Source of the DNA: Escherichia phage vB_Eco_ORH_001
Reading direction: 5' to 3' (one strand)
DNA length: 44,456 bases
Sequence record: PV656001.1
Shown here in pieces: positions 30,463-30,557 of this stretch; the stretch's first letter is position 1, and every line of letters starts with the position of its first letter. The notes below the pieces were generated by a model. That model worked only from the letters and a program-made list of their open reading frames with translations. It was not told where the DNA came from and made no database searches. Made by a program: the position numbers and the translations under genes.

Positions 30463-30479
30463 ATAACCCCCTGACATAT

Positions 30480-30521
30480 GCGTCTGACCATCAGAGCGCA
30501 TCAGACGCGCCCTACGCGTCT
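30480..30521. promoter_or_regulatory. nested inverted/direct repeats of GCGTCT in the terS leader
   Basis: gcgtctga(30480-87), tcagacgc(30501-08), agacgc(30503-08), gcgtct(30516-21). Confidence 0.4.
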
Positions 30522-30527
30522 AAAGGG

Positions 30528-30557
30528 ATTATATAAGGGGATTGGGCTGGATGTACA
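30528..30557 (-). promoter_or_regulatory. candidate late promoter TGTACA-N18-TATAAT
   Basis: Minus-strand -10 TATAAT is the complement of 30528-30533; -35 TGTACA at 30552-30557. Confidence 0.35.

Follow-up and report, generated by a model that had tools for sequence, protein, structure and literature searches.

The repeats just upstream of terS, the gene for the small terminase subunit, in Escherichia phage vB_Eco_ORH_001 (PV656001.1) are the stems (arms) of hairpins in a conserved, structured leader RNA. We analyzed the whole 44,456-nucleotide (nt) stretch of DNA, which we call the window, and by comparing sequences and folding the RNA we showed a terminator-promoter-leader-terS module with a predicted, conserved two-hairpin RNA fold and invariant (A/U)GG triloops. 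The hexamer GCGTCT occurs on the plus strand at 30480 to 30485 and 30516 to 30521, with an inverted copy, AGACGC, at 30503 to 30508. An original prediction for this region had listed these copies together with a promoter-like site and the terS ATG, and all of its coordinates were confirmed. It had also suggested that the region might be a riboregulatory element, and this reading is supported. That the element is real is indicated by the stability of the fold and, more strongly, by its conservation, with covariation, across genera.

The hexamer pattern alone is no rarer than chance. GCGTCT was not enriched in the window (27 copies versus 25.8 expected), and the number of 6-mers with a reverse complement on both flanks within 40 nt showed no excess (4 in the window versus 4.05 ± 2.3 in Markov-1 simulations). 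The repeat arms extend beyond the hexamers, with 8-nt arms at 30480 to 30487 and 30501 to 30508 (13 nt apart) and 7-nt arms at 30503 to 30509 and 30515 to 30521 (5 nt apart). The case for the element rests on folding and on comparative evidence. The parts of the element, which lie on the minus strand (the coding strand for the genes around the leader), are as follows:

30478..30522, minus strand: the whole tandem-hairpin element, 45 nt (covariance model R1)
30502..30522, minus strand: hairpin A, UAGACGCGU-AGG-GCGCGUCUG, nine pairs including two G·U, with an AGG triloop; −12.8 kcal/mol
30478..30501, minus strand: hairpin C, AUGCG(C)UCUGA-UGG-UCAGACGCAU, with a stem split by a 1-nt bulge into a lower and an upper part and capped by a UGG triloop; −11.1 kcal/mol

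The 45-nt element begins about 6 to 7 nt after a TATAAT hexamer and folds into the two adjacent hairpins A and C. Hairpin A holds the repeat copies at 30516 to 30521 and 30503 to 30508, and the copy at 30480 to 30485 sits in the 3′ arm of hairpin C, whose heptamer GAUGGUC (30492 to 30486) is invariant in all lineages. After hairpin C, the mRNA strand continues with AUGUCA, the terS Shine-Dalgarno (SD) sequence, and the AUG. When the 69-nt leader was folded with RNAfold, both the minimum free energy (MFE) structure and the centroid consisted of exactly A and C (−24.3 kcal/mol; z = −2.3), and the terS SD and AUG, 7 to 16 nt beyond the element, were largely unpaired in the leader alone. No U-tract follows hairpin A, hairpin C, or the third hairpin, B, that can be drawn here. 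Both pairs of repeat arms share 30503 to 30508, so that the two hairpins they would form, A and B, are formally mutually exclusive. Hairpin B joins the 3′ arm of A to the 3′ arm of C and reaches −11.8 kcal/mol versus −23.9 kcal/mol for A and C together, and its central pair has a probability of about 2e-4. What has been conserved is hairpin A together with a different hairpin, C, that reuses the 3′ arm of B.

The same architecture, judged from sequence comparison, precedes terS in Kagunavirus, Jerseyvirus, Cornellvirus-like phages, Serratia phage Tsm2, Dhillonvirus, and Eiauvirus. Close relatives of the window are classified as Kagunavirus, in the subfamily Guernseyvirinae. Among 44 Kagunavirus and Jerseyvirus contigs, the stretch from the terminator to the terS ATG was more highly conserved than the first terS codons, while the upstream gene varied. 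Jerseyviruses carry UAUGA/UCAUA where Kagunaviruses carry UCUGA/UCAGA, a C-G to A-U exchange under which hairpin C is retained and hairpin B is broken. With a terS that is about 36% identical, Cornellvirus-like phages have the same architecture (AGAGGUGCG-CAGGG-CGCGUCUC, with two G·U pairs). In distant phages (terS 24 to 30% identical), the stems were entirely different and the loops were the same:

Serratia Tsm2 hairpins: AAGGCCC-UGG-GGGCUU and GCCGA-UGG-UCGGC
Dhillonvirus hairpins: AGAUGGC-AGG-GCCGUCU and UGCCGA-UGG-UCGGCG
Edwardsiella eiAU-183 (Eiauvirus) hairpins: GGCGGGCC-AGG-GGUCCGCC and UGGA-UGG-UCCA

Further stems were found in two IMG/VR contigs. Contig L224 (IMGVR_UViG_3300023280_000122) has UGGCGC-AGG-GCGCUA and CCAG..UACCGA-UGG-UCGGUA..CUGG, and contig L181 has three UGG-triloop hairpins in a row (371 to 416), with GATGGTC occurring twice at 10-nt spacing. 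In every such lineage, terS lies downstream of the element.

To quantify covariation, we used a structural alignment (A4) of 20 distinct sequences, in which the three most distant rows were N-padded and placed by hand to fit the structure. On this alignment, 96.9% of the cells of A and C were paired, and 15 of the 20 pairs changed on both sides (41 cells), with 7 of 9 such pairs in A and 8 of 11 in C. The covariation score of A and C was 0.417, compared to 0.159 ± 0.015 in shuffles (reached in 0 of 500) and at most 0.098 in slid controls. Hairpin B had 79% of its cells paired versus 77% in shuffles, and only two double changes, which is no covariation above the controls; its two central pairs were unpaired in 11 and 9 of the 20 sequences, and it was disrupted in Jersey-, Cornell-, and Dhillon-type sequences. 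The two mutually exclusive hairpins of the original prediction are thus not supported as a switch. As an unbiased control, we ran RNAalifold on a plain, unsupervised MAFFT alignment (A5) of 31 distinct Kagunavirus, Jerseyvirus, and Cornellvirus-type sequences, and this predicted all nine pairs of A and the five apical pairs of C. In the same alignment, the apical pair of C was C-G in 17 sequences and A-U in 14, and many G-C to G·U transitions were seen. By our own tally of the per-pair table of A4, G·U pairs occupied 46 of 387 cells. Because these cells would be A·C mismatches on the opposite strand, the selected fold is that of the sense strand and hence of RNA.

We then built a covariance model (R1) from the three close groups only (Kaguna-, Jersey-, and Cornell-type). 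The model had a single match in the window, at 30478 to 30522 (73.4 bits, E = 5e-15; next best, 14.5 bits), and it located the element at the expected place ahead of terS in Tsm2 (21.1 bits), Dhillonvirus (19 to 20.5 bits), eiAU-183 (19.6 bits), and L181 (14.3 bits). Scanning IMG/VR with a structure-blind pattern turned up 76 new matches, of which 17 had both hairpins and the other 59 were chance; all both-hairpin matches long enough to show the next gene sat directly upstream of a terS-type start. A search of Rfam 15 (cmscan of 30300 to 30800, both strands, E ≤ 10) gave no match over 30459 to 30557, and the only other matches in 30300 to 30800 were isrB, below its gathering threshold, and a microRNA model. 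The isrB match (23.8 bits; gathering threshold, 35) spans window 30558 to 30637 on the minus strand, covering the terminator and the end of a 51-amino-acid (aa) open reading frame (ORF), and is probably a chance match driven by the terminator.

The heptamer of hairpin C is overrepresented in the window as DNA, with 12 copies of GATGGTC against 3.85 ± 1.7 expected (0 of 100 shuffles reached 12); examples lie at 1134, 3166, 14966, 18699, 20008, 24371, 28424, and 30581. None of the 11 other copies is in a hairpin, and all are in coding DNA; the excess may be a codon-pair (Asp-Gly) effect. A different arrangement was seen in IMG/VR contigs L199 to L206 (terS about 37% identical), which are without the tandem hairpins. 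At about locus positions 270 to 340, their leader has TGtTATAAT and then GCGGAUC-GGAA-GAGCCGC with a U-run directly before the terS SD and ATG, a structure that, from its sequence, looks like a leader terminator or attenuator.

Upstream of the leader, two features complete the module:

30557..30580, minus strand: intrinsic terminator, AAGCCCUC-UACG-GAGGGCUU then UUUUCU, an inverted repeat that is present in the MFE structure of the read-through RNA
30528..30557, minus strand: sigma-70-type promoter of the terS operon, with −35 TGTACA (30557 to 30552), an 18-nt spacer, and −10 TATAAT (30533 to 30528)

The terminator closes an upstream cluster of small ORFs, its U-tract abuts the −35 hexamer, and it is kept in relatives with compensatory changes (CCCUC/GAGGG versus CCCGC/GCGGG). 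In a consensus scan, the promoter scored 10/12, the top score over 4 kb, shared by three matches. The −35 and −10 hexamers and the 18-nt spacing were unchanged between Kagunavirus and Jerseyvirus, while the spacer sequence was rewritten, a pattern that reads as the footprint of a real promoter. The placement of the repeats between a promoter and terS, as first predicted, is thus borne out. TATAAT or TATACT lies 5 to 7 nt ahead of hairpin A in every lineage examined, and from this spacing we infer that transcription starts at about 30521 to 30522, which would put hairpin A at the extreme 5′ end of the mRNA (+1 ± 1). A sigma-dependent pause element (TATGAT in Jersey- and Cornell-type sequences) was considered and rejected, as by eye it was not conserved in Kagunavirus, Dhillonvirus, or eiAU.

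Read-through RNA, transcribed from upstream, differs from promoter-initiated RNA in carrying the 5′ arm of a long-range helix, which we call P0:

30523..30536, minus strand: 5′ arm of P0, UUAUAUAAUCCCUU, made up of the −10 hexamer and discriminator and present only in RNA reading through from upstream
30459..30472, minus strand: 3′ arm of P0, AGGGGGUUAUAUGA, containing the SD GGGGG (30471 to 30467) and the terS AUG (30462 to 30460)

P0 is a 14-bp helix (30536 to 30523 with 30472 to 30459), encoded by an inverted repeat, that was found in both the MFE structure and the centroid, where it forms a three-way junction with A and C. An 86-nt RNA including the −10 region had an MFE of −38.3 kcal/mol (z = −5.07; 0 of 200 shuffles), and P0 was also in the MFE structure of a 156-nt RNA including the terminator (z = −5.16). 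Adding the promoter-region RNA changed the MFE by −12.7 kcal/mol, which was equaled by 1% of shuffled extensions (P about 0.01). The mean unpaired probability of the SD and AUG was 0.60 in the promoter-initiated RNA versus 0.03 in the 5′-extended RNA. Across lineages, 85.9% of the P0 cells were paired, compared to 37 to 52% in slid controls, and P0 was significant against shuffles in 6 of 11 lineages, a set that did not include L181. For instance, the Jerseyvirus −10 variant TACAAT was matched by AUUGUA in four sequences (C-G at columns 7/78), and the L181 counterpart, judged from the MFE structure alone, is a pairing of TATACU-CC and GGAGUA. We treat P0 as real for the phage of the window and as lineage-specific, with the understanding that it is a modeled helix. 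The promoter region also contains two of three copies of an 11-nt repeat (sense AAUCCC[U/C/G]UUAG-like; window 30520 to 30543 and 30622 to 30632). A second anti-SD copy (AAUCCCC) in the promoter spacer can also pair with the SD and is used in the MFE structure of the commonest Kagunavirus leader variant.

The gene order around the leader, read on the minus strand, is a run of small ORFs (32692 to 30590), a 127-nt gap, terS, terL (large terminase subunit), and then portal and head genes:

29917..30462, minus strand: terS, 181 aa from the ATG at 30462 (ORF list); matches PHROG 3064 ("terminase"), E = 3e-72
29920 to 28670, minus strand: terL, which matches Terminase_6N/6C and whose start is overlapped by the terS stop

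The SD sequence GGGGG (30471 to 30467) lies 5 nt ahead of the ATG at 30462. In the GenBank annotation of PV656002, terS starts instead at the upstream ATG at 30501 (194 aa), a 13-residue extension. The true start is probably 30462, on sequence grounds, because the SD is conserved, because relatives either lack the ATG at 30501 or have it out of frame or ahead of a stop, and because the paired substitutions in between are nonsynonymous and yet preserve pairing. The TerS N termini are Arg/Lys-rich in all lineages, and the central part of the protein (residues about 47 to 137), taken as the DNA-binding region, is conserved across the lineages sharing the motif. The upstream small-ORF cluster includes a gene for a 76-aa DUF3850/ASCH ("RNA-binding") protein (31148 to 31378, minus strand). 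A 1.2-kb query around the leader was 100% identical to Escherichia phage vB_Eco_Hrm2 (PV656002.1). The window (44,456 nt) is one base longer than that record (44,455 nt) and is reverse-complemented relative to it, and it appears to be rotated, as judged from one matched block.

The explanation that we favor, and to which we give about an even chance, is that the element is the structured 5′ leader of the terS-terL-portal (late structural) mRNA and acts in cis, as RNA, on the fate of that mRNA. The terminator would end transcription arriving from upstream, and the sigma-70-type promoter directly after it would start the terS mRNA. As a 5′-terminal stem-loop, hairpin A may shield this mRNA from 5′-end-dependent decay, in the manner of an ompA-type stabilizer, and the two invariant loops may form a platform for a partner. 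RNA that reads through the terminator would carry the −10 region, pair over 14 bp with the SD and AUG, and close the three-way junction around A and C. From this pairing of the SD and AUG in P0, it would follow that read-through transcripts are silent for terS, as well as for terL, which overlaps terS and is presumably coupled to it in translation. Transcripts from the terS promoter, which are predicted to be without the 5′ arm of P0, would be translatable.

Several points weigh against this explanation. P0 did not exceed shuffles in 5 of the 11 lineages (C1_L054, L224, eiAU, J_L042, and C2) and was absent from the RNAalifold consensus, and its covariation was modest, with three pairs showing double changes, in nine cells. 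Hand placement of the three distant rows biases the covariation on A4 upward, and MAFFT misaligns those three lineages. The 5′-terminal position of hairpin A is predicted from its spacing to the −10 hexamer. Moreover, a pure stabilizer or spacer does not explain why the triloops and their closing pairs (GAUGGUC; Y-AGG-G) are invariant beside stems that change freely. Because pure structure does not require an invariant GAUGGUC and Y-AGG-G, a partner for the loops likely exists, to judge from their conservation. Tentatively, and with clearly less confidence than in the cis-acting leader itself, we suggest that the tandem (A/U)GG-triloop hairpins could be a recognition module for the transcription or translation machinery, either as a put-like RNA acting on Escherichia coli RNA polymerase through the late operon or as an operator for oligomeric TerS (or another conserved factor).

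Taken separately, each of these two forms of a recognition module meets difficulties. The operator would consist of two hairpins (three in L181) with (A/U)GG triloops, 3 to 13 nt ahead of the SD, and an RNA-binding protein, dimeric or oligomeric, would bind them and so repress or activate the translation of terS. The protein could come from the host or be a conserved phage protein; among the latter is oligomeric TerS, which would bind by its basic N-terminal tail and thus regulate itself. Such an operator would fit the invariance of loops and closing pairs among lineages with stems that have no sequence in common, the repetition of the hairpin unit two or three times, the closeness of the element to the ribosome-binding site, and the Arg/Lys-rich TerS N termini, but our search for a candidate protein gave none, and the element occurs in one copy per genome, which is not what is expected of a regulon operator. 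The immediately upstream gene differs between close relatives. The ASCH/DUF3850 gene was rejected as the partner, as it is not consistently present in relatives and its homologs are spread over unrelated phages (138 Escherichia, 49 Klebsiella, 42 Enterococcus, and 23 Listeria records, with only 15 of 485 at ≥90% identity). CsrA binding requires GGA in a hairpin loop, and CsrA/RsmA sites were rejected because the loops read AGG-G and UGG-U in all lineages, without GGA. On balance we regard the operator as rather doubtful. Still less probable, in our view, is processive antitermination of the put type, in which the nascent hairpins would stay on RNA polymerase and make it resist terminator-like hairpins in the long late operon. 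The layout of putL is equal, with two stem-loops starting within a few nucleotides of the transcript start (PMC9378689), and a host target such as RNA polymerase would explain invariant loops in diverged phages; the terminator-like hairpin in the terS leader of L199 to L206 suggests termination-level control in this phage group. GC-rich hairpins with U-tracts also stand immediately ahead of start codons within the operon, and neither is followed by a promoter-like site. One is AGCCCC-GAAA-GGGGCU (27165 to 27150, minus strand), 10 nt before the ATG at 27139 of a head-morphogenesis gene that has no obvious SD, and another is GCCCCGC-UUUA-UGGCGGGGC (25302 to 25283, minus strand), before an Rz-like gene. 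However, the U-tracts of these internal hairpins are weak, and they may be stabilizers rather than terminators. The leader has no similarity to put: it is 45 nt long with simple stems, compared to about 70 nt with a triplex and bulges, and R1 run against the whole HK022 genome returned noise only (best, 11.5 bits, E = 0.5), with nothing at the put sites.

The original prediction had also offered the repeats as a pac site, and this was not supported. In such a site, the small terminase would recognize the GATGGTC and AGGG motifs as DNA and begin headful packaging there, much as it does at the SPP1 pac, which overlaps the gene 1 promoter region. A position adjoining terS is classical for pac, the central part of TerS is conserved across the motif-sharing lineages, and TCTGATG (GATGGTC in L181) is repeated at 10-bp spacing. 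An argument against pac from differences between the TerS DNA-binding domains was withdrawn in view of that central conservation. Jerseyviruses package by a headful mechanism, "P1-like" by PhageTerm (PMC10783031). Against this, the variation in the stems is compensatory and keeps base pairing rather than sequence, the invariant bases are exactly those in the hairpin loops and closing pairs, and the distance to the −10 element is fixed at 5 to 7 nt in all lineages. The pac reading is disfavored because recognition of double-stranded DNA does not explain why G·U is tolerated on the sense strand only; the pattern of conservation is the one expected for a one-strand RNA fold and speaks against a site in double-stranded DNA. 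PhageTerm analyses of relatives gave either no termini, as for Kagunavirus fBC-Eco01, or headful packaging without a mapped pac, as for K47, which showed no submolar pac fragment (PMC9825357, PMC10783031). The supplement of PMC10783031 contains no pac coordinate, and no mapped pac for Guernseyvirinae was found in the literature searched. The starts of GenBank records inside the leader were rejected as evidence for termini and are a matter of convention: the Kenya-K47 record starts exactly 50 nt before the terS ATG, and fBC-Eco01 is without PhageTerm termini. We therefore consider a pac site improbable. Lower again stand two further readings. In one, hairpins A (30503 to 30509/30515 to 30521) and B (30480 to 30487/30501 to 30508) would compete and their choice would set expression; both can be drawn in the window phage, but the comparative data contradict this for B, A and C together are far more stable, A folds first during transcription, and no U-tract follows any hairpin, so that such a switch is very improbable. 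A transcription attenuator was likewise rejected, there being no second conserved structure and no U-tract and the SD being unpaired in the leader alone. In the other reading, which we consider just as improbable, the conserved sequence would be coding, either as a TerS N-terminal extension from the ATG at 30501 or as a short upstream ORF that would begin at the loop AUG of hairpin C. In Kaguna- and Jersey-type phages, terS and the ATG at 30501 share a frame, and AUGGUC is invariant; by inspection, however, the frame is lost or stopped in Cornell-type and Dhillonvirus sequences and the ATG is absent in Tsm2, eiAU, and L181. The paired changes are nonsynonymous (Ser to Tyr with Gln to His) yet keep the base pairs, and peptides from the loop AUG share Met-Val only.

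The leader offers a mutable handle on how virulent siphophages without their own RNA polymerase time and insulate the expression of terminase and structural genes. Its covariation is of the textbook kind, it recurs before terS in widely used therapeutic and model genera (Kagunavirus, Jerseyvirus, and Dhillonvirus), and questions of promoter mapping, mRNA stability, promoter-dependent translation, and perhaps antitermination could be approached with it. If the tandem hairpins do prove to be a recognition module, they would constitute a new RNA family spanning Guernseyvirinae, Dhillonvirus, and Eiauvirus. The outcome for pac also suggests caution, in that repeats near terS should not be called pac without end mapping.

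Compared with known systems, the leader resembles the pac sites at or near terS in SPP1, P22, and P1 in that it adjoins terS in a headful-packaging phage, but its conservation is that of a one-strand RNA fold and not that of a double-stranded DNA motif. ThrRS binds two anticodon-like hairpins of the thrS leader, and the thrS operator and the lambda nut site (boxB with N) share with our leader small repeated hairpins with invariant loops just upstream of the SD (thrS) or near a promoter (nut). As in those two systems, the repetition of the hairpins suggests recognition by a dimer or an arginine-rich peptide, although the loops here are 3-nt (A/U)GG loops rather than anticodon-like 7-nt loops or GNRA-like pentaloops. 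A lambda-type nut site itself (a boxA resembling CGCUCUUUA and a boxB pentaloop) was rejected, as the boxA-like GCGCUCU is confined to Kagunavirus, with other sequence in its place in the remaining lineages, and the loops are of 3 nt. In HK022 putL, two stem-loops lie just downstream of PL, within a few nucleotides of the transcript start (PMC9378689). The likeness to putL and putR is that in each case a phage transcript opens with two stem-loops and that the phages have their hosts in common; the difference is that the 45-nt leader, with near-perfect stems and without a triplex or bulged stems, shares no sequence or structure similarity with the put RNAs of about 70 nt.

The stabilizers of the ompA type, reportedly worked out on the ompA 5′ untranslated region by Emory, Bouvet, and Belasco in 1992, come closer in layout. 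There, as here, a stable hairpin lies at or within 1 to 2 nt of the (here predicted) 5′ end and is followed by a second hairpin and then the ribosome-binding site. Such 5′ stem-loop stabilizers need structure and not sequence, whereas the loops and closing pairs of our leader are invariant across genera. The gating proposed for P0 has a parallel in T4 genes e, soc, 49, and I-TevI, in which the DNA for the 5′ strand of an SD-sequestering helix contains the late promoter, so that long read-through transcripts are silent and only those begun at the late promoter are translated (PMC3014915). In the window, too, the SD and AUG are predicted on thermodynamic grounds to be sequestered by a helix whose 5′ strand is promoter-encoded, and the predicted start at 30521 to 30522, taken from spacing, lies downstream of the 5′ arm (30536 to 30523), so that promoter transcripts would lack that arm. 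Unlike the T4 cases, the promoter is of the sigma-70 type and not a T4 late promoter (TATAAATA), a distance of 50 nt separates the arms, which enclose two conserved hairpins in a three-way junction, and the pairing is strong here and not in all lineages. The leader, which has no match in Rfam and no description that we found in the literature searched, combines known principles (a 5′ stem-loop and promoter-embedded anti-SD gating) and adds to them an invariant tandem-triloop module.

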